This document shows, piece after piece, positions 24,217 to 59,386 of a stretch of 59,386 nt of DNA. A program made the translations under genes and the position numbers. The notes under the pieces were generated by a model that saw nothing but the letters and a program-made list of their open reading frames with translations, made no database searches and was not told the DNA's origin. The stretch is from contig CAZBGU010000002.1 in assembly GCA_964491805.1 (NCBI GenBank), positions 9,877 through 69,262 on the forward strand, given 5' to 3'. The DNA comes from an uncultured Candidatus Saccharibacteria bacterium. Lineage in GTDB: Bacteria > Patescibacteriota > Minisyncoccia > Phycocordibacterales > UBA5272. Numbering within the stretch: position 1 is the stretch's first letter; each line of letters opens with the position of its first letter.

Positions 24217-24220
24217 CATT

Positions 24221-24257: not shown

Positions 24258-24378
24258 GACTACGAGGCACAGTAGCAAGCCACCTGCGTGGCTTGCGTGA
24301 GATGAGAATAGGGCTCGCGAAACTATCTCTGACGAACGAAGTGAGGAAGTAGTTTTGTGAGCGAATCCCACATCCTCA
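24258..24378 (+). other. tRNA-3'-flank structured element, copy E2
   Basis: GCAAGCCAC-CTGC-GTGGCTTGC (24275-24296) is followed by GTGAGATGAGAATAGGG, CGAACGAAGTGAGGAAG and AGTTTTGTGAGCGAATCCCACATCCTCA. The last is a degenerate copy of the tRNA from the T-stem to the 3' end. Confidence 0.6.
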
Positions 24379-24414
24379 TTTTTGTTGTTTGTACGAAAAC
24401 TTTGCAGAGGTCAA

Positions 24415-24428
24415 CACTAAAGGGGTTC
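24415..24428 (+). repeat. 14-bp direct repeat CACTAAAGGGGTTC, left copy
   Basis: The exact 14-mer recurs at 25273-25286. Together the copies bracket the GC-rich cassette. Confidence 0.8.
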
Positions 24429-24485
24429 ATAAGTGAGGCGTTACTCTAAATACACTTGTTTTACAAGTGTTAATGTACGTAAGTA

Positions 24486-37788: not shown

Positions 37789-37856
37789 ACTTATTAAGAG
37801 TGTATAAAGAAAAACATACGAAAGATAGTATATACTTAGTGTATATGTTGAACTTT

Positions 37857-38912: not shown

Positions 38913-38921
38913 ACCCTTTCT

Positions 38922-39626: not shown

Positions 39627-39637
39627 CGTAACTAACT

Positions 39638-40219
39638 ATGTCACCAAAACTTCTTAATTTACTCCTCGTCATACTACCTTTCGTTCTCTATTATGGGTAC
39701 ATTGATCCTATGTATAATGGTACACCTGGGTTGGCGTGGACATTTGAAAATACAATACCAGTTCTTAAGGCAAAAAATGTACAATATGAAAACTCGATAG
39801 GCCAAATCGATCTAATCCAGAGATCTGCAGACAATCTTAATAAGGATTACAAGGCAATAGATCCAAAAGTTATCGAGAAGCTCAACACCCTTTTGCCTTC
39901 CTCTGTTGATCCGATAAAATTGCGGAATGATGTAGTCTCTATTGCAGCTAAGTCAGGGGTTGCGATTACTAATCTTGTGGTCGAGCTTGATCCTAGAGAT
40001 CAGAATGTGTATAAAATCAACTTTAATATCAAAGCAAGGTACTCACTTTTTAAGATGTTTATGGCAGATTATGAAAAGAGTACAAGGATGTTTGTATTGA
40101 CTGGAATGAGAATTTCCAGAATTGAGGCCTCGGGTGTAAATGATAAAGATGTGCAAAATGATATCTCTGCAGACAAGCTCAATATTTCAGTTTCATCGAA
40201 AGTATATTTTAAGAAATAG
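39638..40219 (+). CDS. PilO-like bitopic pilus assembly protein (tentative)
   Basis: N-terminal TM helix. Third gene of the pilMNO-type row. Confidence 0.45.
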   Translation: MSPKLLNLLLVILPFVLYYGYIDPMYNGTPGLAWTFENTIPVLKAKNVQYENSIGQIDLIQRSADNLNKDYKAIDPKVIEKLNTLLPSSVDPIKLRNDVVSIAAKSGVAITNLVVELDPRDQNVYKINFNIKARYSLFKMFMADYEKSTRMFVLTGMRISRIEASGVNDKDVQNDISADKLNISVSSKVYFKK

Positions 40220-40226
40220 TACAAAT

Positions 40227-40571
40227 ATGCAAATTAATCTTTCAAAATTCGTTGGAGTTCTTACGGGGATAACAGCAGTTGGGCTGCTTGGTTTTTTTGG
40301 GTATTTTATGTATCTGCTTTTTTTTGTTGGACCTGAACCTGAGGCAGTTCCTTCTGTTGAAGCAATAAACCCTAGTTCATTTGGTGACAAGTTGCAAAAA
40401 GCAGCTGTTGCTGCAAAAAATAAAAATATTTACTTAAGTAAGACAGGTAAAATAAATATTTCTTACACCGATCAGCCACTTTTTAATTCATTCACTGAAG
40501 TCCCAGATCCTGTGCCGCTTACTGACACACGAGGACGAGATGATCCTTTTGTTCCGTATGTTGCTCCTTGA
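40227..40571 (+). CDS. small bitopic protein with a C-terminal RDDPF motif (PilP-like, tentative)
   Basis: TM helix and C-terminal GRDDPFVPY. I chose the ATG at 40227. Confidence 0.4.
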   Translation: MQINLSKFVGVLTGITAVGLLGFFGYFMYLLFFVGPEPEAVPSVEAINPSSFGDKLQKAAVAAKNKNIYLSKTGKINISYTDQPLFNSFTEVPDPVPLTDTRGRDDPFVPYVAP

Positions 40572-42318: not shown

Positions 42319-42575
42319 TAACAGAGTGCGTGCTATATAAGATTGTAAAATTATTTTTTTAAAATCTATTTTCAGACCAACGGTACTATCGATGTTATAT
42401 ATTAGTCGCTTTACGTTTGGTATACGGTATGCGTTTTATGTATCAAGCAGACCTAATACTTTGCGGTTTACTTTTTACACAGCAATGGATGTTCCTGTGA
42501 GTTATACAATTGTGGTTTATAAGTTCCTTGTTATACTTTCGTTAGCTACACGTTAACGACTGCTAGCTGTCTATT

Positions 42576-43634
42576 ATGAACTACGAAACAGAACTCGATG
42601 ACCTTGTTATGACACTTGTGAAAGAAGGTGGCTCAGACCTTCATTTTACTGTTGGGCATTTTCCTACACTTCGCGTCAATAGGGAACTTATTCCTCTTAC
42701 AAGAAAAAAAGAGATGACAGGAGAAGACACTCTTGGTTTTCTTCATCAGATGATCGGAGAAAAAGCATTGACAAACTTTGTTGTTAAGCAGGAGCTTGAT
42801 TTTTCATACACCCACCGCAAGGAGTACCGTCTTCGAGGTAATGCATCTTTCCAGCGCGGGGTCATATCTGTTGCACTTAGACTTATTCCACGAGTTAAAT
42901 CTATTACAGAGCTCGGTCTTCCAGAACAATTGATCTCTGTTTCTCGAGAAAGACAGGGCTTCTTCTTGGTTGTCGGGTCAGTTGGGCAAGGTAAATCAAC
43001 AACTCTCGCAGCTATTGTTGCACAAATTAACAGCGAATCCAGACGTCATGTGCTCACCATTGAGGATCCTGTTGAGTTTCAGTTTGCACAAGATAAGTCA
43101 TTGATAGAGCAACGTGAAGTTGGTATTGATACGGGTGATTTTAACAGCGGTCTTGTACATTCATTACGACAGGATGTGGACGTCATTATGGTTGGAGAAA
43201 TGTCAGACCGTCAAACTATGGCGACAGCTGTCACTGCCGCCGAGACAGGACACCTTGTACTATCTACTCTACACAGTAACTCTGCCGCACAAGCAGTTGA
43301 TCGTATTATCGATTCATTTCCTGCTGATCAGCAGAATCAGATACGGTTACAGCTTTCTTCAACACTAATTGGTATTCTTTCTCAGCGGCTACTTCCTTCA
43401 AAAGCAGGAGGTCTTGTTCCTGCATTTGAGTTGCTTCTTAACACTGGTGCGGTCGCCAACTTGATTCGAGAAAATCGTACACACGAACTCGACACCATCA
43501 TTGAAACTGGATCAAAAGACGGCATGATTGATCTCGATAGGTACCTAGCGGATCTTGTCCGACGTGATATTGTAGCTGTCGACGTTGCATATAGCTTTGT
43601 AAGAAGGAGGGGGCTTTTTGATAGATTACTTTAA
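42576..43634 (+). CDS. pilT: twitching-motility retraction ATPase PilT
   Basis: 352 aa. GSVGQGKSTTLAAIV, IMVGEMSD, GHLVLSTLHSNSA and a motif of the AxxxIRE type (VANLIRENR). Confidence 0.9.
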   Translation: MNYETELDDLVMTLVKEGGSDLHFTVGHFPTLRVNRELIPLTRKKEMTGEDTLGFLHQMIGEKALTNFVVKQELDFSYTHRKEYRLRGNASFQRGVISVALRLIPRVKSITELGLPEQLISVSRERQGFFLVVGSVGQGKSTTLAAIVAQINSESRRHVLTIEDPVEFQFAQDKSLIEQREVGIDTGDFNSGLVHSLRQDVDVIMVGEMSDRQTMATAVTAAETGHLVLSTLHSNSAAQAVDRIIDSFPADQQNQIRLQLSSTLIGILSQRLLPSKAGGLVPAFELLLNTGAVANLIRENRTHELDTIIETGSKDGMIDLDRYLADLVRRDIVAVDVAYSFVRRRGLFDRLL

Positions 43635-43649
43635 TAATTTTATTTTTAT

Positions 43650-44870
43650 ATGATCTTTCACTATACCTGGCTAAATAATAATGGCAACAAAGAGGAGGGA
43701 GAGTTAGACGCAACGTCTCTTGATAATGCTATTGTTATTTTGCAGAAAAAGGGTATTACAACAATACTTGAGGTTACTGAAAAGGTCGACAGGCAGAACA
43801 ATGTACTTGCAGCAACCAGTTCTCTCTTTAAGCAAAAAATTAAGCCAAAAGATATCGTGCTTTTTTCAAGGCAGGTATCAACTCTGTTTGAAGCAGGTGT
43901 TTCTGCTCTTCGTGCATTCAGACTTCTTGCGCAAGAAAACGAAAATAAGACCTTGCAAGAACAGATCATGGGTGTAGCGGATGATATTGAGACAGGTATA
44001 TCACTTTCGGATGCTCTTTCTCGAAAACCAGAACTTTTTTCTAATTTTTATGTCAACATGGTCAAGGCTGGAGAAGAATCCGGAAAGTTGAATGAGGTGT
44101 TCTTGTTCTTAGCGGATTATCTTGATAGAAACTATGAGCTTAATCAGAAGATTAAAAAAGCTCTTACCTACCCAAGTTTTGTTATCGGCACCTTCATTCT
44201 CATTATGGTTGGAATGCTTACCTTTGTGGTTCCTAAAATGGCAAAGATGTTTGCGGAAGAAGGAGCTGTTCTTCCTCTTGTGACGAGAATTGTGCTTTTT
44301 ATATCTGATCTCTTTGTTAAGTATGGCCCAATTACATTTCCGATACTCGGCATAGCTTGGTTTTTCTTTTATAGATGGACAAAAACAGAAGAGGGTGGTT
44401 TTATTGTTGACACGTATATGCTTGAGGTTCCAGTGCTTAAGAATGTTGTTCAGAAAATTTTTTTGCAAAGACTATCTGATAACATGAACACAATGCTCGC
44501 TAACGGTGTTCCTATTGTTAAGTCTATTGATATTACAACCTCTATTCTTGATAATAGAGTTTACAAAAAGTTGATGGCACGAGTTTCTGAAAAAGTACAG
44601 ACAGGTAAATCTTTCTCAAAAGCTCTCTACGAGGAACCTCTTGTACCAAACATTCTCGTGCAAATGGTGCATATTGGAGAAGAGACTGGTGAGCTTGCGT
44701 ATATTCTCAAAAATCTAGCATCGTTTTACCGTCGCGAACTAGATACTGCTATCGATAGTATGATCGGTCTTATTGAGCCTGCCATGATCGTGAGTCTCGG
44801 TATCGGTGTTGGTGTGCTTGTGTCTGCTATTCTCTTACCAATGTACTCACTGTCAGATGCGATCAAGTAA
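43650..44870 (+). CDS. pilC: type IV pilus platform protein PilC (GspF family)
   Basis: 406 aa with two GspF repeats, each carrying 3 TM segments. Confidence 0.9.
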   Translation: MIFHYTWLNNNGNKEEGELDATSLDNAIVILQKKGITTILEVTEKVDRQNNVLAATSSLFKQKIKPKDIVLFSRQVSTLFEAGVSALRAFRLLAQENENKTLQEQIMGVADDIETGISLSDALSRKPELFSNFYVNMVKAGEESGKLNEVFLFLADYLDRNYELNQKIKKALTYPSFVIGTFILIMVGMLTFVVPKMAKMFAEEGAVLPLVTRIVLFISDLFVKYGPITFPILGIAWFFFYRWTKTEEGGFIVDTYMLEVPVLKNVVQKIFLQRLSDNMNTMLANGVPIVKSIDITTSILDNRVYKKLMARVSEKVQTGKSFSKALYEEPLVPNILVQMVHIGEETGELAYILKNLASFYRRELDTAIDSMIGLIEPAMIVSLGIGVGVLVSAILLPMYSLSDAIK

Positions 44871-45093
44871 GGGGTCGAGATTTAAGGTTTTAAGGTGATG
44901 TAGAGTACTGAAATGTCCGAAACCACAAAATACCAAACCTCTTGGGTTTGGTATTTTATTTTGCGGGTGGAGTGGTTCTAATATCTAATTATCATACACT
45001 CTTTAGTTATCCACACTATTTTATCTGTATACTTGTGTATTTAATATGGAAAGGTATATACTTTAGATTATCTACAAAAGATAGAAAAAAATT

Positions 45094-45774
45094 ATGTCAA
45101 ACACATTTAAAAAATCAAGTGCAGGTGTACGTGGATTCACTCTTATCGAGCTTCTCGTGGTGATTGCTATTATCGGTTTGCTTTCTACTATTATTGCTGC
45201 TCCTATCCAGAGCGCTCGTAAGAAGGCTCGTGATGCGAAGAAGATTGCTGAACTCAAGTCAACACAGCTTGCATTTGAACAGTATGCTGAGTCTAATTCA
45301 GCGCAGTATCCTCACACACTTCAGGCACTTTCTCCACAGTTTATGCCACTTTTGCCGACGTTTGCTGCTTCAACTACATCAAATGCTCGTGATGCTTTCG
45401 TTTATACATACTATGATGCTTCTGCAAGTGGTGCAGCAACAACAACGTTTTCTTATCATTTTGGAGTGAAGCTCGAAGTATATGGACCAGCACTTGAAAC
45501 TGACAGAGATTGCTCTGCTGCTACGCTTTCTAATTCGCTATCGGTTCCATTCTGTGCAGTGTATAATGGAGATGCTATGTATGGTGTCTTTGTTGATACA
45601 GGTTCTCAAATTGCAGCAACGTCTTCATTTTCGGTCCTTAATACTGGAGGTACTGATTTTAACATGAGGTGGTACGCTAATCCTCCTTTTGGTCTATCAA
45701 ATTATACTGAAGAATCAAGTAGTACCTGTGTTGTCTCAAATGACTGTATCTTCGATGTAACATCACAGCAATAG
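45094..45774 (+). CDS. type IV pilin (major pilin candidate)
   Basis: Class III signal ...GVRG/FTLIELLVVIAIIGLL. Confidence 0.85.
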   Translation: MSNTFKKSSAGVRGFTLIELLVVIAIIGLLSTIIAAPIQSARKKARDAKKIAELKSTQLAFEQYAESNSAQYPHTLQALSPQFMPLLPTFAASTTSNARDAFVYTYYDASASGAATTTFSYHFGVKLEVYGPALETDRDCSAATLSNSLSVPFCAVYNGDAMYGVFVDTGSQIAATSSFSVLNTGGTDFNMRWYANPPFGLSNYTEESSSTCVVSNDCIFDVTSQQ

Positions 45775-45795
45775 TCTAGGTAAGTTTTCTTAAAT

Positions 45796-46572
45796 GTGTT
45801 GTCTATCTTATCCTTCATCTTTGGTGCATCAATAGGAAGTTTCGTACAAGTTATTGCTTCGCGACTTCATGTTGCACCAATTATGAAAGGGCGTAGTAAG
45901 TGCCTCTCTTGCGGAGAGGCACTTCGCGCGTCTGACCTTATCCCCGTTATCTCCTATCTTTGGTTAAGGGGTAAGTGTCGCCACTGCAAAAGTGTCTATG
46001 GGGTATCCGCATTGGTTGTCGAAGTATTATTTGGTGTTACATTCGTGGTCTTGTATCAGCTAATTATAAAGGATCAAGTTTCATTGCTTGTTAGTTTGTT
46101 ATGGCTTGTGTACTACACATTGCTATTTGGAACACTCGGCGTTATGGCTCTTTATGATAGAGCTCATTCGTACATACCTTCTATGTTTCTCTATGGGTAT
46201 CTAGCGCTTACCGCTATTATGTACTGTATGAGAATTGCTAATGACCCTCATGTGCTGACAATGATCTCGCCTGTGTTTGTTGCTGTGCCGTTTTTATTAG
46301 TGTGGCTCATCACAAGGGGTAGAGGTCTTGGTTTTGGTGACGTTATTTTGTTCTTCGGTGTTGGTATGTTCTTCGACTCTTTGCAAGGGCTTGCTGTGCT
46401 CATGGTCTCTGTATGGTTAGGTGCTATAGTGGGTATCTATATTAAGTATATTTCTAGACAAAGGCTTTCTGATACTACAGCGATACCATTTGTGCCATTT
46501 ATTGTTATTGGATTTCTCATTGTGTTGTTCACAGATATGGATATATTTTCGATCGCAATGTCGTTTTCATAG
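45796..46572 (+). CDS. pilD: prepilin peptidase (A24 family)
   Basis: CLSCGEAL...GKCRHC zinc motif and the GFGDVILF catalytic Asp motif. Confidence 0.88.
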   Translation: MLSILSFIFGASIGSFVQVIASRLHVAPIMKGRSKCLSCGEALRASDLIPVISYLWLRGKCRHCKSVYGVSALVVEVLFGVTFVVLYQLIIKDQVSLLVSLLWLVYYTLLFGTLGVMALYDRAHSYIPSMFLYGYLALTAIMYCMRIANDPHVLTMISPVFVAVPFLLVWLITRGRGLGFGDVILFFGVGMFFDSLQGLAVLMVSVWLGAIVGIYIKYISRQRLSDTTAIPFVPFIVIGFLIVLFTDMDIFSIAMSFS

Positions 46573-46587
46573 TGCTACTATGTATAT

Positions 46588-47268
46588 ATGTCACTAAGAA
46601 AAGGCGTAGAGATCAGATCTTCCTTACATAAAGGGTTCACTCTCGTTGAGCTTCTGGTAAGTGTTTCTATTATGGTGGTTATTCTTGGTATTACTCTTTC
46701 TGGCGGACCACAGTCAATCATGAGACTTACTTTAGCAGATAATGCTTACCAGACAGAATTGTTGTTGCGTGAAGCGCAGCTGCAAGGCAGCGCTGTTAAC
46801 TCTGTTGGCGGAGTTTATGGAGGTGTTGGTGTATTTTTTGATAGAAGCACTTCAACGAGTGTACTAAAATTTAGAGACAAGGTTGATCCGCTGATCAAGA
46901 GGGATATTGGTGTTGGTAATGGTTTGTATGATCAAAGTGTTAGTGACGAGAAGGAATTGATATTTAGGACAACAAACAACCATAAGATAGGTAAGTTATG
47001 TGTGTCTGAGGGGATTAACCCTTTTGTTTGTAATGATGAAGATCCAACGAACCTCATTAAGACACTTACTGTTTCTTTTAGTCGTCCACGACAGACCGCA
47101 CACCTATATGTTAATGGTGAATATGGCGTAAAAGGTGACCTCAATAAAGAATACACATCTGCATGTATTCAGATTGATTCCTTAAAATCACCTGCTCCTG
47201 GCTTTGTTTACTCTATTACGGTATATCGCTCAGGAATGGTGACCAAGAAAGCAAGCACATGTAAATAA
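46588..47268 (+). CDS. prepilin-type minor pilin
   Basis: HKG/FTLVELLVSVSIM N-terminal methylation motif. Confidence 0.75.
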   Translation: MSLRKGVEIRSSLHKGFTLVELLVSVSIMVVILGITLSGGPQSIMRLTLADNAYQTELLLREAQLQGSAVNSVGGVYGGVGVFFDRSTSTSVLKFRDKVDPLIKRDIGVGNGLYDQSVSDEKELIFRTTNNHKIGKLCVSEGINPFVCNDEDPTNLIKTLTVSFSRPRQTAHLYVNGEYGVKGDLNKEYTSACIQIDSLKSPAPGFVYSITVYRSGMVTKKASTCK

Positions 47269-47278
47269 AATCACAACT

Positions 47279-47929
47279 ATGACATATATCAGTAAACATT
47301 TTGGAGTAAAGGGATTCTCACTTGTAGAAATATTGGTGGTACTTGGTCTATTTTCTTCAATTGCAACGCTCAGTCTCGGGTCTCTCTTTAATGCACAGTC
47401 TGTAAATAGAAGACTGCAAGAGACTCAGGCTATTTTGGATAACGTAAATCTCTCCACTCAGACAGTGACTCGAGATATTCGTTTTGGTACTGATTTTTAC
47501 GCAACAACATCATTACCATATGGAAATGATGCTCCACCATACACACGAAGAAACTGCCCTCAGTCGTCTCCGACTGCTTGCACTATTCTTATATTTACTC
47601 CGTCCGACAGTAAAGACTACCGAGATAGGGTTGCTTACTATATAAAAAATGGAGTTCTTTACAAAACAACATATCCGTACGGGTCTTCTTCCTCCACGGA
47701 GCAAATGACGTCAAGCGATGTAACCATTAAGTCGTTATTTTTCTATCTCGAAGGGGCCCAGACTTCGCTAGGTGACACTCTTTATGACGATAATGGCGCA
47801 ATTGATTATAAGCAGCCGCTTATAACTTTTTTGCTCTCCGGTATCACTAAACCTGCAGGAGGTGCAATGGCATCAACAACTTTTGATTTTGAAACCAATA
47901 TTTCTCCTCGTGAGCTAGATAATCAATAA
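47279..47929 (+). CDS. prepilin-type minor pilin
   Basis: VKG/FSLVEILVVLGLF motif. Confidence 0.75.
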   Translation: MTYISKHFGVKGFSLVEILVVLGLFSSIATLSLGSLFNAQSVNRRLQETQAILDNVNLSTQTVTRDIRFGTDFYATTSLPYGNDAPPYTRRNCPQSSPTACTILIFTPSDSKDYRDRVAYYIKNGVLYKTTYPYGSSSSTEQMTSSDVTIKSLFFYLEGAQTSLGDTLYDDNGAIDYKQPLITFLLSGITKPAGGAMASTTFDFETNISPRELDNQ

Positions 47930-47936
47930 ACATTCT

Positions 47937-48689
47937 ATGAATACAAAACACATTAGTATACAGGGTTTTACGTTACTTGAGACTCTAGCGTCGATCGCGA
48001 TCATAGCTTTAGTTATTGTTGGCCCTCTTTCTGTATTAAGTAGATCTTCTTCGTATGCTCGACAAACCAAAGATGTTATCGTTGCTACATACCTTGCTGA
48101 AGAATCTATTGAATTGTTGCAGAACCAGTATGATTCATTGTATATATATTGTAAAAAAAGCCCTGGCGCGAACACTGGACTGTGTTTACCAAGAGGAACA
48201 GAATCAACAACAGGACAAACTTCTTGGAGACTACTTAAGGAGAGACTTGGAAGTCCAAGTACTATGCCATCTTGTTTTGGTGATGAAAGCGGAGGGAGTG
48301 GATGTTCCTTTGATACCCTTGATATGACAGGGGACATTTCTACAACGCCGCCTGCTCGTTATGCTGCAGGTGGTGAGGAATGCCCATTTCTTGTTAAGGT
48401 TAAAAAATATACTACTGGAGGAAATCAGGAGGTGTCCTATTCTCATGAAAATACCAGGAGTTCTTATGTGTGTTCTGGTGTTACATCACATGTTGTATCT
48501 GGTGTGGTTGACGCAACGAAGCCATTTACAAGAAATGTTGTTATTGACCAGTTGCCTACATTTGAAACTGGTTCAAGATACGACCAGTATAGTGATGACC
48601 TCCGTATTACTTCTGAAGTTAAGTTTAGAGGTGTAAATGGAAGAACTCAGACGTTACGCGTTATTCGCTTCATGAGTCCTCGCCTATAA
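47937..48689 (+). CDS. prepilin-type minor pilin
   Basis: IQG/FTLLETLASIAII motif. Confidence 0.75.
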   Translation: MNTKHISIQGFTLLETLASIAIIALVIVGPLSVLSRSSSYARQTKDVIVATYLAEESIELLQNQYDSLYIYCKKSPGANTGLCLPRGTESTTGQTSWRLLKERLGSPSTMPSCFGDESGGSGCSFDTLDMTGDISTTPPARYAAGGEECPFLVKVKKYTTGGNQEVSYSHENTRSSYVCSGVTSHVVSGVVDATKPFTRNVVIDQLPTFETGSRYDQYSDDLRITSEVKFRGVNGRTQTLRVIRFMSPRL

Positions 48690-48694
48690 GATAT

Positions 48695-49390
48695 ATGAAA
48701 AAACCTATTGTAACAATTCTTAGATGCTGGCTACAAAAAAACCGACTAGGTTTTATTCTACCTTTCACAATGCTTATTTGTGTACTTATTCTTCTTGTGA
48801 CAAGCACATCAATGACGCTTCTCTCTAAACAGCTTTATTTTTCGAAATTGTACAAGCAGAGTCAGTCTGCATATTATGCGGCCGATGATGCACTTGCGTG
48901 CACACTTTCTATTGATGATATGTATCAAGGAATGGATGGACTTGGAATTTTTCCAAGCAGCAATGCTGTAGACACCTTCACGTACATGGAAGATGTTGTT
49001 GCATACGTTAATCAGAAAAGAATTGACGCTGGTCTTGCGGATACTGTAGATCTACAAAGTGGCCCAGGAAAGAAACCTATAATGTGTGGTCAGGCGGTTA
49101 TCTTTGATACAGGCGAATCCTCAGATTCTAAGTTTGCAACTTCAACATTTGAACGTACATACAACGACCCTACTCTTGGACCAGTGACCGAGACTGGTAT
49201 TGCTTCGACGTTTACTATGCGTATGGACCTTGGTGTTGACCCTGTTACGAGTTTGCATTCATATCGTTGTGCTAAAGTTACTGTTAATAAAACGACGATA
49301 TTTCGTCAGATTATTTCCCAAGGATATTCGACATGTGACAATCTTAATACCGCTGTCGAGCGTGCGGTTGTAAACACAACAAAATATTAG
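48695..49390 (+). CDS. PilX-like pilus-associated protein (tentative)
   Basis: N-terminal hydrophobic anchor without the canonical G/F-x-x-x-E. Last gene of the pilin row. Confidence 0.45.
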   Translation: MKKPIVTILRCWLQKNRLGFILPFTMLICVLILLVTSTSMTLLSKQLYFSKLYKQSQSAYYAADDALACTLSIDDMYQGMDGLGIFPSSNAVDTFTYMEDVVAYVNQKRIDAGLADTVDLQSGPGKKPIMCGQAVIFDTGESSDSKFATSTFERTYNDPTLGPVTETGIASTFTMRMDLGVDPVTSLHSYRCAKVTVNKTTIFRQIISQGYSTCDNLNTAVERAVVNTTKY

Positions 49391-53304: not shown

Positions 53305-54702
53305 ATGTATTCTCTTTCCATTGATTATCTTTTTAATAGAATCTACGATGTTTTGCTTTGGATAAAATACACATGGCTTTTTTCCATACTTCGAAAGTCT
53401 CCGGAGACATATCTAGATGAACACTCAGGCCGCGATTGGGACGGACTGCGAGATAGAGGATGGTTTGACGAATACTTAGCACAGAAAGATATGGCAGTGC
53501 CTCCTGCAGAGGTTCATGTTTCATTGTGGCAAAGAATGCTCGAAGGTCTCGGTCTAAAAGTTCGTGATAGTGATAATGACGGTATACCAGATATTACTGA
53601 TAGTCGACCTTATGATGCAGACAATTTAACAAAAGCACAGTTAAAAGAGAGATACGAAGCAGATTACTCTTTTTTTGATAAAGTTCGAGACATGTTCGGT
53701 ATAGGACCAAAAGATACCGACAAAGATGGTGTTCCAGATAGTTACGAAGTGAACCATGGTCTTGATCCTAAGAATCCAGATTCTGATAGAGACGGTGCTC
53801 TTGATGGTCAAGAGTTAGTGCAGGGTACTGACCCGTTAAACAACGACACGGATGGTGACGGAGTTTTAGATGGACGCGATGAGGCCCCTCTTGATCCTAA
53901 GGTCTCATCAATCGGTCCTGACAGTGATGGCGATGGTGTAAGTGACAGAATAGAAAAATTTCTCGGCATAGATAGTACAAAAACAGATACAGATGGTGAC
54001 GGTATACCAGATAGCATGGACACGTATCCACTTGATCCAGAAAATTTGAGCAAGATACCTGCACTTGATATCAATAAAGCAACTGAAGGTTTACATTTTT
54101 CAATACAAAACCCAGTGTTATCTGTCTTCGCTGACATACTGTCGGTTCTGACGATTGTCGTGCTTGTGTTGCTTGTATTTATCGTTTTTAGATGGATATC
54201 TGAATTTATTGCAAGTCTTGATCATTACGAACATTATTTTCATCACGGGGATCATGGCTCACACCATGGAGGTCATGTGATTAGAGATACGAGCACCCAT
54301 AACCGTGACGAGATGCCGGCAGGTATTGCAGGGCTTCCTGTTGGGTCTGGTATAGATTTTCAGGTGCATGCACCGTCAGTACTAGAGTTAGTTGATCACC
54401 CAAAGTTTGCTGTCATTCAGGGTTACATGAGCAGCGGAAGTGAAGCGTTGTGGAGGATCGGTATTATGGAGGCTGATAATCTCCTGCTTGAAGTTCTTAG
54501 TGAGAAGGGTTACACAGGTGAAGGTGTTGGAGAAAAACTGAAGGGTGCGAGTTTCAAAACTATAGATCTTGCATGGGATGCGCATAAGTTGAGAAATAGA
54601 ATCGCACATGAAGGTTCTGACTTTGAGTTGACTGAACGGGAAGCAAAACGAGCTTTTACCTTATTTGAATCAGTATTTAGGGATTTGAAAGTGATCAGGT
54701 AA
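53305..54702 (+). CDS. membrane protein with thrombospondin-type-3-like Ca-binding repeats and a conserved C-terminal cytoplasmic domain
   Basis: At least 8 DxDxDG(I/V)xD repeats (e.g. DSDNDGIPD, DTDKDGVPD, DSDRDGALD, DTDGDGVLD), then a TM helix, a His-rich linker and a C-terminal domain ending AHKLRNRIAHEG. Confidence 0.65.
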   Translation: MYSLSIDYLFNRIYDVLLWIKYTWLFSILRKSPETYLDEHSGRDWDGLRDRGWFDEYLAQKDMAVPPAEVHVSLWQRMLEGLGLKVRDSDNDGIPDITDSRPYDADNLTKAQLKERYEADYSFFDKVRDMFGIGPKDTDKDGVPDSYEVNHGLDPKNPDSDRDGALDGQELVQGTDPLNNDTDGDGVLDGRDEAPLDPKVSSIGPDSDGDGVSDRIEKFLGIDSTKTDTDGDGIPDSMDTYPLDPENLSKIPALDINKATEGLHFSIQNPVLSVFADILSVLTIVVLVLLVFIVFRWISEFIASLDHYEHYFHHGDHGSHHGGHVIRDTSTHNRDEMPAGIAGLPVGSGIDFQVHAPSVLELVDHPKFAVIQGYMSSGSEALWRIGIMEADNLLLEVLSEKGYTGEGVGEKLKGASFKTIDLAWDAHKLRNRIAHEGSDFELTEREAKRAFTLFESVFRDLKVIR

Positions 54703-54751
54703 CTGAGTGAATAAAATATAGAAACGATGTGGATAGTTACGGAAGAAATAT

Positions 54752-54784
54752 AATACGAGCGACACCCTCGGTGTCGCTCGTATT
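54752..54784 (+). terminator. Rho-independent terminator
   Basis: AATACGAGCGACACC-CTC-GGTGTCGCTCGTATT. Confidence 0.65.
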
Positions 54785-54791
54785 ATTCTTA

Positions 54792-54881
54792 TTGCAGGGA
54801 CACTAATAAGAATAATAAAAAGAGTACCGGTTACAGTACTCCTTTTATTATTCTTGTTGCGGGGACAGGAATATCGGTCAC
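54792..54881 (-). repeat. two tandem degenerate copies of the tRNA-CAT(-) 3' end separated by an AT-rich hairpin
   Basis: Plus-strand TTGCGGGGACAGGAAT (54857-) and TTGCAGGGACACTAAT (54792-) resemble TTGCGGGGACAGGAATCG of the intact gene at 55077-. Each is preceded by TATTATTCTT. Confidence 0.7.
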
Positions 54882-55024
54882 AAAACTTCTCCTCGTCTTA
54901 CTTCCAAGAAGCGAATTTACTAATTCGTCGTCGATAAAGTTTTCTGACCACTATTCGATTCCTGACGAACATGAGCGCCTCACGGCGTGATTTACTAATC
55001 AGCAGGTCATTTATTTCATACGAG
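54882..55024 (-). other. tRNA-3'-flank structured element, copy E3 (minus strand)
   Basis: On the minus strand it reads GTCAGGAATCGAATAGTGG (54966-54948), a variable region, then GACGAGGAGAAGTTTTGTGACCGAT (54897-54873) fused to the tRNA 3' remnant. Confidence 0.55.
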
Positions 55025-55076
55025 ACAAATAAAGTAAAAGCAGTATTGATTACAATACTGCTTTTACTTTATTTGT
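55025..55076 (-). terminator. long AT-rich hairpin immediately 3' of the tRNA-CAT(-)
   Basis: 24-bp stem ACAAATAAAGTAAAAGCAGTATTG/CAATACTGCTTTTACTTTATTTGT. Confidence 0.6.
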
Positions 55077-55146
55077 TGCGGGGACAGGAATCGAACCTGT
55101 GTCCCGAGGTTATGAGCCTCGTGAGTTACCTCTACTCTACCCCGCT
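55076..55146 (-). tRNA. tRNA-Met(CAT), possibly the initiator
   Basis: Anticodon arm CGAGG-CTCATAA-CCTCG and T arm ACAGG-TTCGATT-CCTGT. My fold gives an A1/A72 mismatch and an A11:T24 pair, both initiator-like. CCA is not encoded. Met vs fMet vs Ile2 cannot be settled by eye. Confidence 0.8.
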
Positions 55147-55187
55147 ATATATTTTTCATAATTAATTGTTTAACGAGTATTAACAAA

Positions 55188-55247
55188 CCTCGGAGGTTAT
55201 GAGATCTATAAAAATCTCTTGTGAGTTACCTCTACTCTACCTCCCGC
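55188..55247 (-). pseudogene. degenerate copy of the 5' half of the tRNA-CAT(-) with a hairpin insertion
   Basis: The minus strand reads GCGGGAGGTAGAGTAGAGGTAACTCAC-AAGAGATTTTTATAGAT-CTCATAACCTCCGAGG. The intact gene reads GCGGGGTAGAGTAGAGGTAACTCACGAGGCTCATAACCTCGGG. Confidence 0.7.
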
Positions 55248-55418
55248 TATCTTTTGTTCACGATATTCAAATGTTATGATATAGTACCACAATTTTAATG
55301 AATTCACAAGATATTTCATACACAGTGCACTATCGTATTGAAATTATGTCAAAAATATAGTAGTATTTGATGTACTTGTTGAACACAGTACGTGTTACAA
55401 ACTAGATAATAACACTAT

Positions 55419-55495
55419 GTCAGTGTAGCTCAGTTGGTTAGAGCGAAGGACTCATAAGCCTTAGGTCGGTGGTTCGATCCCACCCACTGACACCA
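55419..55495 (+). tRNA. tRNA-Met(CAT) (elongator Met or Ile2-lysidine type)
   Basis: Acceptor GTCAGTG/CACTGAC, anticodon loop CTCATAA, T arm GGTGG-TTCGATC-CCACC. CCA is encoded. Confidence 0.88.
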
Positions 55496-55543
55496 AATAA
55501 TAAACACCCTCATATGAGGGTGTTTATTATTTGGTGTCAGTGG
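55484..55543. repeat. perfect 28-bp inverted repeat that includes the last 12 nt of the tRNA
   Basis: CCACTGACACCAAATAATAAACACCCTC-ATAT-GAGGGTGTTTATTATTTGGTGTCAGTGG. Confidence 0.9.
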
Positions 55544-55668
55544 AGAAAGTAAACTGCTTTACTTTCGTGTGGGATCGAATAGGCGAATCAGCAGATTCGG
55601 TTCTTGGAACAAGCGGAATATCTTCGGCGAACGAAGTGAGGAGGAGTTCCGTGACCGATCCCACCCAG
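55544..55668 (+). other. tRNA-3'-flank structured element, copy E4
   Basis: GAAAGTAAA-CTGC-TTTACTTTC (55545-55566), GTGTGGGATCGAATAGGC, hairpin CGAATC-AGCA-GATTCG, CGAACGAAGTGAGGAGG (55628-55644), then AGTTCCGTGACCGATCCCACCCAG as a tRNA 3' remnant. Confidence 0.6.
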
Positions 55669-55682
55669 TATTAAAATTAAAC

Positions 55683-55886
55683 CTACTTACCCTTAGACCA
55701 AACATATCCGACATACACCGAAAGCACTATACCAGTTATGAGTACGATAAGCATGTATGGGTGTACTATTTTTTCAAAATATACCCCACACGATATTCCG
55801 ATAAAGAATACAGCTACTTTAAATATACTAAGTTGCCACCAGGTGAATGTTGTATTTTTGAAGATGTTCATACCATAAGTATACAC
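55683..55886 (-). CDS. small two-TM membrane protein
   Basis: 67 aa with two hydrophobic helices. Starts 58 nt downstream of the 407-aa gene on the same strand. Confidence 0.45.
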   Translation of the reverse strand: MYTYGMNIFKNTTFTWWQLSIFKVAVFFIGISCGVYFEKIVHPYMLIVLITGIVLSVYVGYVWSKGK

Positions 55887-57426: not shown

Positions 57427-57500
57427 GCGGTCGTAGCTCAGCTGGTTAGAGCACTGCCCTGTCACGGCAGGGGTCGTGGGTTCAAATCCCATCGACCGCG
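57427..57500 (+). tRNA. tRNA-Asp(GTC)
   Basis: Acceptor GCGGTCG/CGACCGC, anticodon arm CTGCC-CTGTCAC-GGCAG, T arm GTGGG-TTCAAAT-CCCAT. CCA is not encoded. Confidence 0.93.
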
Positions 57501-57507
57501 CAAAGAG

Positions 57508-57536
57508 AAAAAGCCTTCGAGAGAAGGCTTTTTCTT
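57508..57536 (+). terminator. Rho-independent terminator after tRNA-Asp
   Basis: AAAAAGCCTTC-GAGA-GAAGGCTTTTT. Confidence 0.7.
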
Positions 57537-57581
57537 ATGATGGATTTAGGGTTGAAGAACTGAGTGATATAATTAACGGGT

Positions 57582-58202
57582 ATGATATCTATTCTTTGTT
57601 TTGGAGATTCGAATACTTACGGTGAACAGCCTAATGATGTATCGCCCTTACCTTTTGAAAAAAATTGGCCAGTTGTTTTGCAAGAATCTTTAGGTGATAA
57701 TTTTTCTGTCTTGAAAGAAGGTTTATCTGGAAGAACACTTATAGCAAAAGAAGAAAAATTATTCAGAAATTCTTTGCCCTATTTTGAAGCATGTATTCTT
57801 TCTCATTTTCCTGTTGATGTGATTTTTCTTATGCTTGGAACAAATGATGTAAAAGATAAATTTTCTTTGGAAGTTGAGGAAATTGTTTCTGGGTTTAAGC
57901 CATGCCTTGAGTGTATTAAAAAGTCTTATGACAACACAAAGATGCCGAAGGTTGTAATAATTATCCCTCCTGTTGTAGATTTCAAAAATACACCAAGTGA
58001 CTGGGGGTTTTCATTTGAATCAGAGATTAAGAATAAAAAAATGGTTGAAAAAATAAAAGAATTTACCTTCCAAAATAATCTGCTAGTTTTTGACAGCAAT
58101 GAATATGTGAGTGTAAGTAAAGAAGACGGTGTTCATCTTAATGAAGAAAGTCATAAAAAATTAGGGAGAGCGCTATCAGATTACATCAAAATCATTCTTT
58201 GA
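57582..58202 (+). CDS. SGNH/GDSL family hydrolase
   Basis: Block I ILCFGDSNTYG, block III LMLGTNDV, block V DGVHLNEESH. Confidence 0.8.
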   Translation: MISILCFGDSNTYGEQPNDVSPLPFEKNWPVVLQESLGDNFSVLKEGLSGRTLIAKEEKLFRNSLPYFEACILSHFPVDVIFLMLGTNDVKDKFSLEVEEIVSGFKPCLECIKKSYDNTKMPKVVIIIPPVVDFKNTPSDWGFSFESEIKNKKMVEKIKEFTFQNNLLVFDSNEYVSVSKEDGVHLNEESHKKLGRALSDYIKIIL

Positions 58203-58216
58203 CCTTTAAGTATTTC

Positions 58217-58286
58217 AGTTCTCACTTCATCCACTAGAGTGCGTAAAAAAGAAAAAGCCTTCCAAGTGAAGGCTTTTTCTTATGAT
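58217..58286 (+). repeat. degenerate copy of the tRNA-Asp 3' end plus its terminator (att-like remnant A)
   Basis: AGTTCTCACTTCATCCACTAGAGTGCGTAAAAAAG plus AAAAAGCCTTC-CAAGT-GAAGGCTTTTTCTTATGAT. Compare the tRNA end TTCAAATCCCATCGACCGCGCAAAGAG plus AAAAAGCCTTC-GAGA-GAAGGCTTTTTCTTATGAT. Confidence 0.7.
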
Positions 58287-58346: not shown

Positions 58347-59201
58347 ATGAACGCAAACATCATCGGTTTATTAAAACGGGAGCTGGAAAATTCTCAAGCA
58401 AGCATTACGGGTTATTTTTTAAGTTGCGCACTTGTTACTAATAAAGGTGTTTACGTTGGAAGTAATAAAGAATTTGATGATGGTAGTTTTGCGTTTGAAC
58501 ATGCTGAAACAAGTGCCATTAAAGAATGCTTGAGAGTCGAAAATGAGCCCACTATTCGTAAAATCTTTCTTTGCGGTAGAGGAAAAGTAAAAAAGCTTAA
58601 ACATTATGTTCCTTGTGCTACCTGTTGTGATGTTTTAGATTCTTATTGTTCGTCTGACACGGAAGTGGTTCTTGTTGATATAAATAATAACGATAGTACG
58701 ACTATATTTAATTTTAATGAACTACGAGAATCGTATTCCTTCAAAGAGATATCAAGACTTCAGGTTAATAGCTTACATTTACGTGAAAAAGATAATCAGT
58801 TTCTTCAGCGTTTAATTAGAGAAATAAAAGGAAAAGTTGAAGGTGTGTTCTTAACTGGATCTGCTTCAGGAAGAGGCGGATTTACTTCATTTTTAAGAAA
58901 GAAATTTAATCTTGATTATGGAGACCTGGATCTTTTTATAATTCTTAAGAAGGAAAATTTACAAGAAATAATCAACTTAGTTAATAGTAGTGCTATTGAA
59001 ATTTACCCTGACTTGCATAAAGTTATAAGAAAGGTGCCTAAATACCAGAATAAAAAGTGTGTAGTTTTAGAAAAGTCTTATTTTGGTAATAACGACACAG
59101 ATGAGCCAGTTCTCGACTTTACATACTCAACCCAGCTAGAAGGTTCTTTTATTCGTAACGAATACTTTGAAAGAAATTGGTATGTTGAATTGATTGGTTA
59201 G
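58347..59201 (+). CDS. fusion protein: cytidine-deaminase-like zinc domain plus minimal nucleotidyltransferase domain
   Basis: N-terminal half has FEHAETSAI ... YVPCATCCDVL (H-A-E / PCxxC deaminase zinc motif). C-terminal half has FLTGSASGRGGF-x13-GDLDLFII (GS...DxD NTase motif). Confidence 0.65.
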   Translation: MNANIIGLLKRELENSQASITGYFLSCALVTNKGVYVGSNKEFDDGSFAFEHAETSAIKECLRVENEPTIRKIFLCGRGKVKKLKHYVPCATCCDVLDSYCSSDTEVVLVDINNNDSTTIFNFNELRESYSFKEISRLQVNSLHLREKDNQFLQRLIREIKGKVEGVFLTGSASGRGGFTSFLRKKFNLDYGDLDLFIILKKENLQEIINLVNSSAIEIYPDLHKVIRKVPKYQNKKCVVLEKSYFGNNDTDEPVLDFTYSTQLEGSFIRNEYFERNWYVELIG

Positions 59202-59209
59202 AAAGATTT

Positions 59210-59243
59210 AGTTCTCACTTCATCCACTAGATCGCGCAAAAAG
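59210..59243 (+). repeat. degenerate copy of the tRNA-Asp 3' end (att-like remnant B)
   Basis: The 22-mer AGTTCTCACTTCATCCACTAGA is identical to 58217-58238. It is followed by TCGCGCAAAAAG; compare the tRNA end CCGCGCAAAGAG. Confidence 0.7.
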
Positions 59244-59280
59244 TAAAATGCATCCATTTACCAAAATGGATGCATTTTAC
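59243..59280 (+). terminator. Rho-independent terminator-like hairpin
   Basis: GTAAAATGCATCCATT-TACCAA-AATGGATGCATTTTAC followed by TTTT. Confidence 0.6.
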
Positions 59281-59283
59281 TTT

Positions 59284-59386
59284 TCACGCAGAGACAGAAG
59301 TCCATGACCTGCGTCATGGACGTTGGGATTTGAATAGGGGTCGAGGAGTCTCCTGTTTTATGTACTCATAAAACGAGACGAGGTGA
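59284..59386 (+). other. tRNA-3'-flank structured element, copy E5 (truncated by the window end)
   Basis: GTCCATGAC-CTGC-GTCATGGAC (59300-59321), GTTGGGATTTGAATAGGGG, hairpin CTGTTTTATGTACTCATAAAACGAG, then GACGAGGTGA at the window edge. Confidence 0.55.

Follow-up and report, generated by a model that had tools for sequence, protein, structure and literature searches.

We describe here a family of hairpin elements that lie 3' of tRNA genes in a 59,386-nucleotide stretch of DNA (the window) from an uncultured Candidatus Saccharibacteria bacterium. This segment is about 40% GC, encodes SecA, LigA, GatCA, a type IV pilus cluster and cytochrome bd subunit II, and contains six tRNA genes as identified by ARAGORN and Rfam: Glu (minus strand), Ser(GCT), Ser(ACT), Met (minus strand), Met (plus strand), and Asp. 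An earlier note made from the sequence alone had described a single module order behind five tRNA loci, and all five are located where it placed them. The order is common to four of them, those behind tRNA-Ser(ACT) (copy B), the minus-strand tRNA-Met (copy C), the plus-strand tRNA-Met (copy D), and at the end of the tRNA-Asp array (copy E), which form a family that we refer to as type I, whereas copy A, behind tRNA-Ser(GCT), has a different core (type II) and conforms in logic only. The tRNA-Glu gene of the window has no unit.

The type-I unit is approximately 110–200 nt long and reads, in order, terminator, CTGC hairpin, X', GAATAGG, P2, apical hairpin, GA, and remnant. The CTGC hairpin has a 9 bp stem and the loop CTGC, and the three examples listed in the earlier note are present exactly at 24275-24296, 55545-55566, and 59300-59321. 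X', previously described as an inverted T-arm box, is exactly the reverse complement of the T-stem 3' strand and T-loop nucleotides of the local tRNA, and forms at least seven Watson-Crick pairs with the neighboring tRNA in every window copy. GAATAGG is a one-sided 7-nt bulge and the sole internal loop; the helix P2 is 13 bp long, with the consensus GGTCGCGAAACTA paired with TAGTTTTGTGACC and two conserved G·T/U pairs. The apical hairpin contains tandem G·A pairs (CGARY-NNN-RYGAG or CGACGAG-TTTA-CGAGGAG), and the apical region of P2 accommodates insertions of 17 to about 50 nt, or genes. GA precedes the remnant, replaced by AA where the tRNA T loop is TTCAAAT, and the remnant itself is a direct partial copy of the tRNA 3' end that starts inside the T loop, as had been proposed. 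The unit junction thus reads ...GTGACCGA followed immediately by X, the 3' part of the tRNA. Two further modules of the earlier note are present, although their assignment needs correction: the purine box is not a separate box, but the 3' strand of the tandem G·A hairpin, and the junction motif 'AGTTTTGTGASCGA' or AGTTYYGTGASC is not a free motif, but the P2 3' strand that pairs with GGTCGCGAAACTA. The terminator hairpin is likewise present; in copies A and D, its stem extends to include the 3' strand of the tRNA acceptor and an inverted copy of that strand. The features of copies A to D are as follows.

23241-23329, plus strand: tRNA-Ser(GCT), target of copy A (ARAGORN; Rfam tRNA, 49.8 bits)
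23330-23395, plus strand: copy A trailer palindrome, with X' GCGAGAGACGATGGGATTCGAAC at 23373-23395 (sequence reading)
23396-23512, plus strand: copy A core, type II, with a GTACTC-loop hairpin and the helix GGCGA/GTTAGG/GATTTT, ending in CCCTAACAATCGCCGA
23513-23524, plus strand: copy A remnant of the tRNA-Ser(GCT) 3' end, ATCCCATCGTCT, which pairs with X' (P1, 13 bp)
24129-24217, plus strand: tRNA-Ser(ACT), target of copy B (ARAGORN; Rfam)
24218-24262, plus strand: copy B terminator hairpin ACAGAGC...GCTCTGT, then a T run (sequence reading)
24275-24296, plus strand: copy B CTGC-loop hairpin, GCAAGCCAC / CTGC / GTGGCTTGC
24297-24378, plus strand: copy B long hairpin (covariance-model match 86.3 bits; minimum free energy fold z = -4.0)
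24297-24325, plus strand: copy B X' GTGAGAT and GA (24297-24305), bulge GAATAGG (24306-24312), P2 5' strand (24313-24325)
24326-24364, plus strand: copy B apical G·A hairpin (24326-24349), P2 3' strand (24350-24362), GA (24363-24364)
24365-24378, plus strand: copy B remnant, ATCCCACATCCTCA
55075-55146, minus strand: tRNA-Met (GCGGGG... type), target of copy C (ARAGORN; Rfam)
54855-55074, minus strand: copy C (covariance-model match 39.2 bits, E = 9e-8; fold)
55074-54967, minus strand: copy C terminator (55074-55027) and CTGC hairpin split by a 27-nt two-hairpin insert (about 55016-54967)
54966-54937, minus strand: copy C X' GTCAGGAATC (54966-54957), bulge GAATAGT (54956-54950), P2 5' strand (54949-54937)
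54936-54874, minus strand: copy C apical region with extra hairpins (54936-54889), P2 3' strand (54888-54876), GA (54875-54874)
54873-54855, minus strand: copy C remnant, TATTCCTGTCCCCGCAACA
55419-55495, plus strand: tRNA-Met (TGTCAGTG... type, CCA encoded), target of copy D (ARAGORN; Rfam)
55496-55544, plus strand: copy D terminator, a palindrome with 30-nt arms, with the inverted acceptor TGGTGTCAGTGG at 55532-55543
55545-55566, plus strand: copy D CTGC-loop hairpin, GAAAGTAAA / CTGC / TTTACTTTC
55567-55670, plus strand: copy D long hairpin (covariance-model match 41.8 bits; fold z = -3.0)
55567-55583, plus strand: copy D X' GTGTGGGATC (55567-55576) and bulge GAATAGG (55577-55583)
within the copy D long hairpin, plus strand: inserted hairpins GAATC-AGCA-GATTC and GTTC-TTG-GAAC, P2 GCGGAA/TTCCGT, and apical CGAAC-GAA-GTGAG
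55645-55670, plus strand: copy D P2 3' strand AGTTCCGTGACC (55645-55656), GA (55657-55658), remnant TCCCACCCAGTA (55659-55670)

About 70% of the units lie behind a canonical terminator relative to the tRNA, by our reading of the loci, and most have a canonical, often bidirectional, terminator before them and no promoter of their own; at the tRNA-Cys and tRNA-Gln loci there is no canonical terminator between tRNA and unit. Triloops of the C-GAA-G/GCGAAGC type, which are exceptionally stable in DNA, often cap both palindromes. The cores of B and D both contain CGAACGAAGTGAGGA, and those of L133 and L146 (handles beginning with L denote loci outside the window) differ by two nucleotides. The long subtype of copy D is also found in the Paceibacterota locus L048. 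Copy A contains neither the CTGC hairpin nor GAATAGG, and has in common with type I only X', the long helix, and the remnant logic; its trailer includes an inverted repeat of about 28 nt with the tRNA 3' end and trailer, its core folds at -38.7 kcal/mol (DNA parameters, z = -7.7), and the right end of that core recurs in L127 and L136. A third core type, seen at L136 8500-8745 and L026 1880-2000, ends in ...ACCAAAGTAATGACCGA joined to ATCTCACC and has a long AT-rich hairpin and a first hairpin loop TCTAAA, with the plan of X', long helix, and remnant unchanged. We also note a two-hairpin module of about 27 nt (GATTAGTAAATC plus GCC-GNGA-GGC) at 54968-54994 of the window (minus strand), L128 4834-4858, and L130 1031-1057, its position is exactly behind CTGC in copy C, but behind GAATAGG in L128 and L130, and it behaves like a movable expansion segment.

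The fold has a strong signature of selection. In an alignment of 42 copies, which was fitted to the covariance model and therefore favors structure, 93.7% of cells form pairs, and compensatory changes on both sides are seen at 23 of 29 pairs; the covariation score is 0.459, compared with 0.173 in shuffles (none of 500 as high) and at most 0.098 with slid partners. The CTGC helix covaries in eight of its nine pairs across these copies. A hand-checked alignment of 20 copies gives a CTGC hairpin that is 96.7% paired with compensatory changes at seven of nine pairs, and a P2 that is 98% paired, and P2 covaries in distant variants such as GGTCGCGAGGTCT/AGACCTCGTGACC and GGTCGCGGAACC/GGTTCTGTGACC. 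Two P2 positions are held as G·U(T), one with 33 GU and three AU (of 36) and the other with 24 GU, eight AU, and two GC (of 34). The fold of the tRNA-sense strand is more stable than that of the antisense strand by about 10 kcal/mol, and the z-scores range from -2.7 to -9.4 among the copies folded, reaching -9.4 in L139, where an acceptor-like helix closes the whole fold (-68 kcal/mol). An acceptor-like helix stacked on a T-like helix is formed in L139 and could also form in L078, L129, and L125, and the acceptor part of the remnant is destroyed in most copies, including B and D. Selection on the fold, as the earlier note had proposed, and its action on the tRNA-sense strand are confirmed by these sequence comparisons.

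The specificity of X' for the neighboring tRNA holds in nearly all copies. At L149, where the tRNA T stem contains a G·U pair, X' reads TAAGG and not TGAGG, and X' is therefore the complement of the T-stem 3' strand rather than a copy of the 5' strand. In the copies with a drifted remnant (B, C, L128, L145, L146, L148, and L149), the complementarity of X' is to the functional tRNA rather than to that remnant. Two alternative hairpins are thus open to X': it can reach over the terminator to pair with the 3' part of the tRNA itself (at L133:5112-5250, -40 kcal/mol under DNA parameters), or over the core to pair with the remnant. In many remnants the match to the tRNA is limited to the 7–10 nt opposite X' and then ends abruptly. 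The L048 unit is a chimera in which the inverted acceptor is Cys-type and X' is Gln-type, and the hairpin arms on either side of CTGC are mismatched.

The family extends well beyond the window. The pattern GAATAGN{38,68}AGTTYYGTGASCGA was scanned over 185,579 species genomes and yielded 113 stretches, most of which are chance matches, as expected for the pattern; those that lie behind a tRNA or have the full anatomy are all from the Candidate Phyla Radiation (CPR), namely Saccharibacteria (L015, L026, and L078), Paceibacterota (L048), Nomurabacteria (L011), and unclassified 'nzgw' metagenome-assembled genomes (L038, L077, and L105). A metagenome scan added 19 further true loci. With a covariance model built from 20 short foreign copies and window copy B, the check suggested by the earlier note, we recover 42 copies with E <= 1e-4, each of which comes from the window or a CPR/Patescibacteria locus, so that further copies do exist; within the 59-kb window it finds only B, D, E, and C, with E-values of 1e-7 or better, and in about 100 non-CPR control loci there is no significant match (best E = 0.35). 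Among the tRNAs of the CPR loci and the window with enough downstream sequence, 27 of 37 are followed on the same strand, within 330 nt, by a type-I unit, a count drawn from loci that were selected for having one unit, although bystander tRNAs in such loci also have units (three of three in both L077 and L145). At least 12 tRNA species are covered, and several tRNAs without a type-I unit have type II units, the third core type (L136 and L026), or cargo cassettes. The window proteins are 59–80% identical to those of L078 and L128, and gene order is common to L128 and the window, which points to a Saccharibacteria/CPR origin of the window. Rfam 15 at the gathering threshold identifies six tRNAs and nothing else in the whole window, and E-value scans of 54700-55800, 23200-24450, and L133:4380-5340 give only tRNAs and sub-threshold matches of miRNA-type hairpins to the palindromes. 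Full-text literature searches returned no description of such elements in CPR. As the earlier note supposed, neither Rfam 15 nor these literature searches contain a described family with the unit layout; in kind the units resemble tRNA-targeting integrative cassettes with a folded recombination site.

Short contigs of the same strain (L001-L004 and L151-L154, from exact-protein look-ups) show no polymorphism, but extend copy E. Public short-read assemblies of this strain break in the terminator and unit palindromes, L001 ending in the tRNA-Met terminator loop, and the units thus evidently fragment CPR assemblies. L121 620-960 contains a unit without an intact upstream tRNA, where the tRNA-Arg-like 3' part has a hairpin between T stem and acceptor strand, and an inverted, diverged unit is situated just upstream (628-700, minus strand).

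Units accumulate in arrays, and some of them carry genes. Remnant and terminator are present three times behind the minus-strand tRNA-Met, and arrays of different core types or degenerate units follow single tRNAs in L126, L127, L133, L136, L128, and L151. Behind tRNA-Asp, single genes lie inside a diverged P2-like stem, in which AGAACTGA at 57556 pairs with TCAGTTCT at 58215. The corresponding features of the window are as follows.

54750-54854, minus strand: two more rounds behind copy C (sequence; terminator scan)
54854-54750, minus strand: terminator 2 (54854-54810), remnant 2 (about 54809-54791), terminator 3 (54786-54750)
57427-57575, plus strand: left boundary block of cargo cassette 1, consisting of tRNA-Asp (57427-57501), terminator, degenerate X' GATGGATTTAGGG, and P2 5'-like GAAGAACTGA
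57582-58202, plus strand: cargo gene 1, GDSL-like hydrolase (Pfam PF13472, E = 3.7e-14)
58215-58285, plus strand: right end of cassette 1, with TCAGTTCTCACTTC (pairs with 57556-57563), tRNA-Asp remnant ATCCACTAGAGTGCGTA (58229-58245), and terminator
58347-59201, plus strand: cargo gene 2, cytidine/dCMP-deaminase-like domain protein (Pfam PF00383, E = 4.9e-6)
59208-59283, plus strand: right end of cassette 2, with TTAGTTCTCACTTC, tRNA-Asp remnant (59222-59238), and terminator
59292-59386, plus strand: copy E, cut by the window end (covariance-model match 39.8 bits)
within copy E, plus strand: CTGC hairpin (59300-59321), X' GTTGGGATTT, GAATAGG (59332-59338), P2 5' strand, and GTACTCA-loop hairpin

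In the same-strain contig L151 copy E is complete (1855-1967, 57 bits) and ends in GAGGTGACCAA before GTCCCAAG, and the tRNA-Asp array continues beyond the window end and includes a unit with an X' matching some other tRNA. A block of about 95 nt, comprising the tRNA-Asp 3' end, terminator, degenerate X', and P2 5' strand, recurs 2.6 kb downstream (L151 2110-2205) before another gene. At L128 the cassette right end and tRNA-Asp remnant (TTTCAGTTCTCACTTC joined to ATCCACTAG...) are as in the window, but follow a LigT-like gene instead of the GDSL-like or deaminase-like gene. On a 182-kb contig (Ga0172379_10000163), downstream of tRNA-Gln, a 205-nt unit block is present as a direct repeat about 5.7 kb apart, and between the repeats are a DUF4297-HerA anti-phage defense pair (L143 838-3744; PADLOC HerA E = 1.7e-242, DUF4297 E = 1.4e-36) and an M23 peptidase (L143:4123-4614).

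Orthologous loci also differ in their units. tRNA-Met-i is followed by copy D in the window and by a plain terminator only in L128 (GatA 80% identical), which is the comparison of presence and absence that the earlier note had called for. Its view of the junction as att-like is borne out by the remnant arrays, the cargo between units, this presence and absence, and the 95–205-nt direct repeats around inserted genes. The orthologous tRNA-Cys genes of L048, L133, and L145 have three different core subtypes, and the 52-nt core that follows tRNA-Lys in L133 is identical to one from another sample that follows an Arg-like tRNA 3' remnant (L121); on this comparison the core subtypes do not follow vertical descent. 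Compared with L128 (4700-5500), the window (54750-55700) has the divergent tRNA-Met pair in the opposite orientation with respect to its flanks; a Cys/Lys tRNA pair differs in the same way between L048 and L133 (Paceibacteria), and these inversions probably arose by recombination between oppositely oriented units.

Rearrangement is evident on the other side of the tRNA genes as well. The tRNA-Ser(GCT) promoter region and first 12 nt are tandemly duplicated over about 84 nt (23044-23128 and 23170-23252), the upstream copy running into the hairpin GGTGC-TTTGA-GCACC, and 5' remnants therefore exist besides 3' remnants. Upstream 5' partial copies of both tRNA-Met genes, one of which has an insert in the anticodon stem, are present in the window (55150-55260, minus strand) and/or L128 (5040-5125 and 5240-5345), so that rearrangement has occurred on both sides of tRNA loci. 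The tRNA at 24129-24217 has the anticodon ACT, a Ser-type long variable arm, and a score of 53 bits, and is 800 nt from the normal tRNA-Ser(GCT); A34 is unusual in a Ser tRNA, and the gene may be a variant isoacceptor or a copy carried in with a cassette.

A search for a responsible enzyme near the units was negative, in keeping with the earlier note's remark that no integrase, transposase, or reverse transcriptase is nearby. Pfam was run on 78 open reading frames (ORFs), 40 from the window and 38 from other loci, and 261 ORFs from 26 loci were clustered, and neither approach shows a recurrent recombinase, transposase, reverse transcriptase, or Nop-domain protein. None of the window ORFs or array neighbors has a Phage_integrase-type match, and neither a Y1 HUH transposase (TnpA/RAYT) nor TnpB was seen in the window or in the flanks (up to 5 kb) of the other loci; integrases, transposases, and reverse transcriptases are absent from the 40 window ORFs and from beside the units in about 25 other loci. 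The neighbors of the units are housekeeping genes (RuvX, RelA/SpoT, TopA, MurB, ParB, and MiaA) or small unknown ORFs. Genes for large serine recombinases (Resolvase + Recombinase + Zn_ribbon_recom) are present at L126 5053-6681 and L133 6087-7685, where they converge on, and overlap, the tRNA-Leu 3' end and are not flanked by units; they probably belong to a separate integrated element at the same kind of site. We also note that 37764-49390 of the window encodes a complete type IV pilus/competence-like cluster (PilM, two T2SSE ATPases, PilC, a prepilin peptidase, and several pilins), and uptake of single-stranded DNA through it could be a route by which cassettes enter.

Starting from the anatomy, covariation, and strand specificity of the units, the matching of X' to the tRNA, the arrays, the exchange of cargo, the presence and absence at orthologous loci, and the lack of a recombinase in cis, we tentatively favor the interpretation that the units are boundary modules of small, trans-mobilized integrative cassettes that fold strand-specifically and target the T loop and 3' part of tRNA genes in CPR/Patescibacteria, and we give it a little less than even weight. 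A unit would bring a replacement 3' part, X, extending from about nucleotide 56–58 of the T loop to the 3' end, usually with a new terminator, then X' split by the CTGC hairpin, and then the core; in larger versions cargo genes would replace the apical hairpin. Integration would be a strand exchange in or beside the T loop, such that the incoming X rebuilds the tRNA and the old 3' end is shifted downstream as the remnant, with repeated rounds giving rise to arrays whose older members decay. The tRNA-sense strand would fold, most likely as single-stranded DNA, with X' pairing with the X of the tRNA or with the remnant, and the junction ...CGA followed by X would be offered at the hairpin foot to an enzyme encoded elsewhere in the genome. 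We infer that this junction is the site of cleavage or exchange, and that the enzyme is either of the HUH/Y1 type or an integron-like tyrosine recombinase acting on folded single strands. We likewise infer that the fold acts as single-stranded DNA, because some 70% of units are behind a canonical terminator and have no promoter of their own, X' is tied to the tRNA gene and not to its RNA partner, and both palindromes are often capped by GAA-type triloops. The L048 chimera and the units with a non-Asp X' in the tRNA-Asp array count in favor of mobility, and of the two options raised by the earlier note, an integrative element or its scar versus a trailer RNA, the evidence leans towards the former.

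Several observations weigh against this proposal. None of the approximately 40 units is adjoined by a recombinase, transposase, or reverse transcriptase, and neither an excised nor a circular form was observed in the loci examined. The copies within a genome are not near-identical, and their CTGC stems differ with compensation, in the manner of old paralogues rather than a recent burst. Conservation of the core across CPR classes exceeds that expected of neutral DNA, the core also has RNA-like features (conserved G·U pairs, tandem G·A pairs, and GUGA/GAGA tetraloops), and a host function is suggested by the presence of units at most tRNAs of genomes that are otherwise streamlined. At the tRNA-Cys and tRNA-Gln loci the lack of a canonical terminator makes co-transcription possible, and the proposal does not explain how a unit gains X and X' for a new tRNA species. 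A further possibility is programmable integration without a recombinase in cis, in which X' (7–20 nt) on the folded single strand (DNA or RNA) guides it to the 3' part of a tRNA gene, and a conserved enzyme of the host or element cuts and joins at the T-loop junction, or possibly at the CTGC loop, with retargeting to any tRNA by change of X and X'; we regard this as rather doubtful.

The main rival, a serious one although we consider it less likely, is a structured noncoding RNA. It would derive from the tRNA 3' trailer (the 3' external transcribed spacer) and, after release of the tRNA by RNase Z or RNase P, fold into the CTGC hairpin and the hairpin of P1, bulge, P2, and G·A pairs; with an intact remnant, a mimic of the acceptor/T minihelix would arise in the form of a three-way junction. 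This RNA would bind a conserved protein or act on its cognate tRNA through X', and the arrays and remnants would be by-products of unequal recombination between direct repeats. The strong covariation, the fixed G·U pairs, the tandem G·A pairs in a CGAR/YGAG context, and the GNRA-type loops of inserted hairpins are all consistent with this, as are the specifically greater stability of the sense strand, the constant position of the unit downstream of, and co-oriented with, a tRNA, the tRNA-Cys and tRNA-Gln loci with no real terminator before the unit, and the closing acceptor-like helix of L139. Remnants that match the tRNA only over the 7–10 nt paired with X' look as if P1 were selected, the homogenized appearance of cores within genomes (B and D; L133 and L146) fits co-evolution with a single trans factor, occupancy in these streamlined genomes is high, and there is a precedent in the tyrT 178-bp repeats and rtT RNA of E. 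coli. However, most units are behind a canonical, often bidirectional, terminator with no promoter of their own, X' follows the tRNA and not the remnant that would be its partner in a processed RNA, and the acceptor parts of the remnants are usually destroyed. Degenerate units, units of foreign specificity, and protein-coding cargo in the P2-like stem argue in the same direction, together with the absence of a unit at an orthologous tRNA (tRNA-Met-i in L128) and of an Rfam match. A mobile element and a trailer RNA are not mutually exclusive, since a mobile element may need its own transcript.

High occupancy, homogenized-looking cores, and the fact that X' and the remnant amount to two extra copies of an essential 3' part could also be accounted for by a non-mobile structure of the host acting in cis as DNA or RNA, be it a palindromic insulator, a super-terminator, or a gene-conversion template that repairs single-copy tRNA 3' ends, subject to concerted evolution. 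We consider this improbable, because it leaves unexplained the cargo in the stem, the units of foreign specificity, the chimeras, and the differing subtypes at orthologous tRNAs, and because tRNA-Met-i of L128 and tRNA-Glu of the window are without a unit. At the opposite extreme, the units could be inert scars of conventional tRNA-targeting islands or prophages with tyrosine or serine integrases, the core being only the att-proximal arm of one widespread element family, without function and similar between copies because its spread was recent. Partial tRNAs arrayed with cargo have been described as a signature of serial integration (tycheposons, 10.1101/2020.12.28.424599), large serine recombinase genes do abut tRNA-Leu in L126 and L133, and there is defense cargo between repeats. 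Inert scars would not, however, keep 23 of 29 pairs by compensation, with fixed G·U pairs, across Saccharibacteria, Paceibacterota, and other CPR, no integrase remnants lie beside the units, and an X' specific for more than 12 tRNA species is impossible for a single attP arm, and we find this explanation quite improbable. Least of all do we favor ordinary decayed tandem duplication of tRNA genes, to which we assign only a very slight chance. Direct partial 3' copies are indeed present, as are 5' copies upstream of tRNA-Ser(GCT) and tRNA-Met, and there is a faint likeness between the P2 3' strand with CGA and a variable loop, T-stem 5' strand, and T loop. But the CTGC hairpin, GAATAGG, P2 5' strand, and apical hairpin are conserved and covary across phylum-level lineages and more than 12 tRNA species, and X' is the exact complement of the T-stem 3' strand and not a 5'-strand copy (L149), and the covariation and covariance-model results already contradict it.

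A number of other candidates were considered and rejected. Miniature inverted-repeat transposable elements do not fit, as X' and X are copies of the target rather than element termini, there is no short target-site duplication, and B, C, and D differ in subtype and stems. A hammerhead reading (CUGANGA/GAAA) fits copy B alone, and a kissing interaction between the CTGC loop and an AGCA loop fits copy D alone. AAUAGGGGUCGCG bears only a faint resemblance to a T-box, with no Rfam match, and the unit lies in the wrong position. A retrovirus-like primer-binding site for mature tRNA is discounted because the inverted copy extends into the trailer of the gene and not CCA (A, L077, and L139), and because the tRNA-derived part starts at about nucleotide 56–57, following AA in TTCAAAT tRNAs, and not at 59. 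A scan of viral_contigs for a phage origin gave three matches, all chance and inside ORFs, and a leader or riboswitch of a downstream gene is at odds with downstream genes that are unrelated or convergent.

CPR/Patescibacteria make up a large share of bacterial diversity, with tiny genomes in which few classical mobile elements have been seen. If the units are boundary modules of integrative cassettes, they would constitute a route by which these genomes gain and exchange accessory and defense genes at nearly every tRNA gene, with the specificity of a small folded module written as the complement of its target, and there would be a new kind of recombination site, target-matched and folded, and an enzyme acting on it to be found. 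Guide-directed integration would amount to a new class of mobile element and the main route of accessory-gene gain in CPR bacteria, and trailer RNAs would be a widespread RNA class absent from Rfam, with one RNA paired to each tRNA. On both readings the family is of practical use as a marker: it explains CPR assembly breaks at tRNA loci and helps to delimit genomic islets, and the 42-copy covariance model is ready for genome-wide surveys.

The tyrT 178-bp repeats of E. coli and the rtT RNA (RF00391) are trailer repeats that each contain the tRNA 3' terminal nucleotides, and give rise to a processed trailer RNA. The units are similar in being a repeated trailer unit with a copy of the tRNA 3' terminal nucleotides, but they have no Rfam match to rtT at E <= 1 or E <= 10 (by region), and the tyrT repeats lack an inverted copy, the CTGC hairpin, and the core, and do not occur across a wide range of tRNA species. 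The tigRNAs of TIGR-Tas systems and the bridge RNAs of IS110 (PMC12045711) are also small structured RNAs, found in CPR too, with segments that match both target strands and with G·A/box C/D-like motifs. In the units, however, the two tRNA-matching segments are complementary to each other, there is no tandem array beside a tas or IS110 gene, and no partner gene (Nop-domain or DEDD recombinase) adjoins the units among the Pfam-scanned ORFs.

The closest mechanistic models are the integron attC site and the IS200/IS605 elements, both as analogies only given that the units have no R boxes, and that no intI or TnpA was seen in the window or the flanks of the other loci. The units resemble IS200/IS605, palindrome-associated transposable elements (PATEs), and the REP/BIME-RAYT systems of repetitive extragenic palindromes, their mosaic elements, and the associated transposases in the subterminal hairpins on one strand and the 3' intergenic position; the cleavage site could be read by conserved nucleotides that lie unpaired on the 5' side of the hairpin foot, insertion would be next to a short fixed sequence, and relatives of IS200/IS605 use a single-copy enzyme in trans, as we propose here. 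Hairpins and a fixed junction (T loop ...CGA) are present in the units, but the target 3' part occurs twice, which is compatible with IS200/IS605 only if the unit carries its own copy; this duplication, a guide X' that would be 7–20 nt and not 4, and the association with tRNAs set the units apart. Like attC, the unit is a strand-specific imperfect hairpin in which structure is kept more than sequence, with unpaired conserved bases and a variable terminal part, and like integron gene cassettes the units bound promoterless single-gene cassettes in arrays and are homogeneous within a genome. Unlike attC they have no R/L box consensus (RYYYAAC / GTTRRRY), with no GTTRRRY visible in the alignment, and the hairpin base is X'/X, a copy of the target that differs with each tRNA; there is no intI or attI among the window ORFs or array neighbors, the landing site is the tRNA T loop, and cargo is inside the apical region of the unit hairpin and not between hairpins.

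In genome organization the units follow the published pattern of tRNA-linked islands such as the tycheposons of Prochlorococcus, in which serial integration beside tRNAs produces arrays (10.1101/2020.12.28.424599). The units differ from tycheposon-type elements in having no integrase or replication genes in or near them, in a size that can be as small as about 110–200 nt, in a covarying fold and tRNA-matched inverted copy that have not been described for the att sites of those elements, and in occupying most tRNAs and not a few. Nonetheless, direct partial repeats of the tRNA 3' end flank the inserted DNA and the tRNA is restored, and the units resemble tycheposons and other tRNA-targeting elements in their insertion at the tRNA 3' part, the persistence of the old end as a direct partial repeat, the displacement of older insertions by successive ones, the accessory and defense cargo, and the inversions around their sites.

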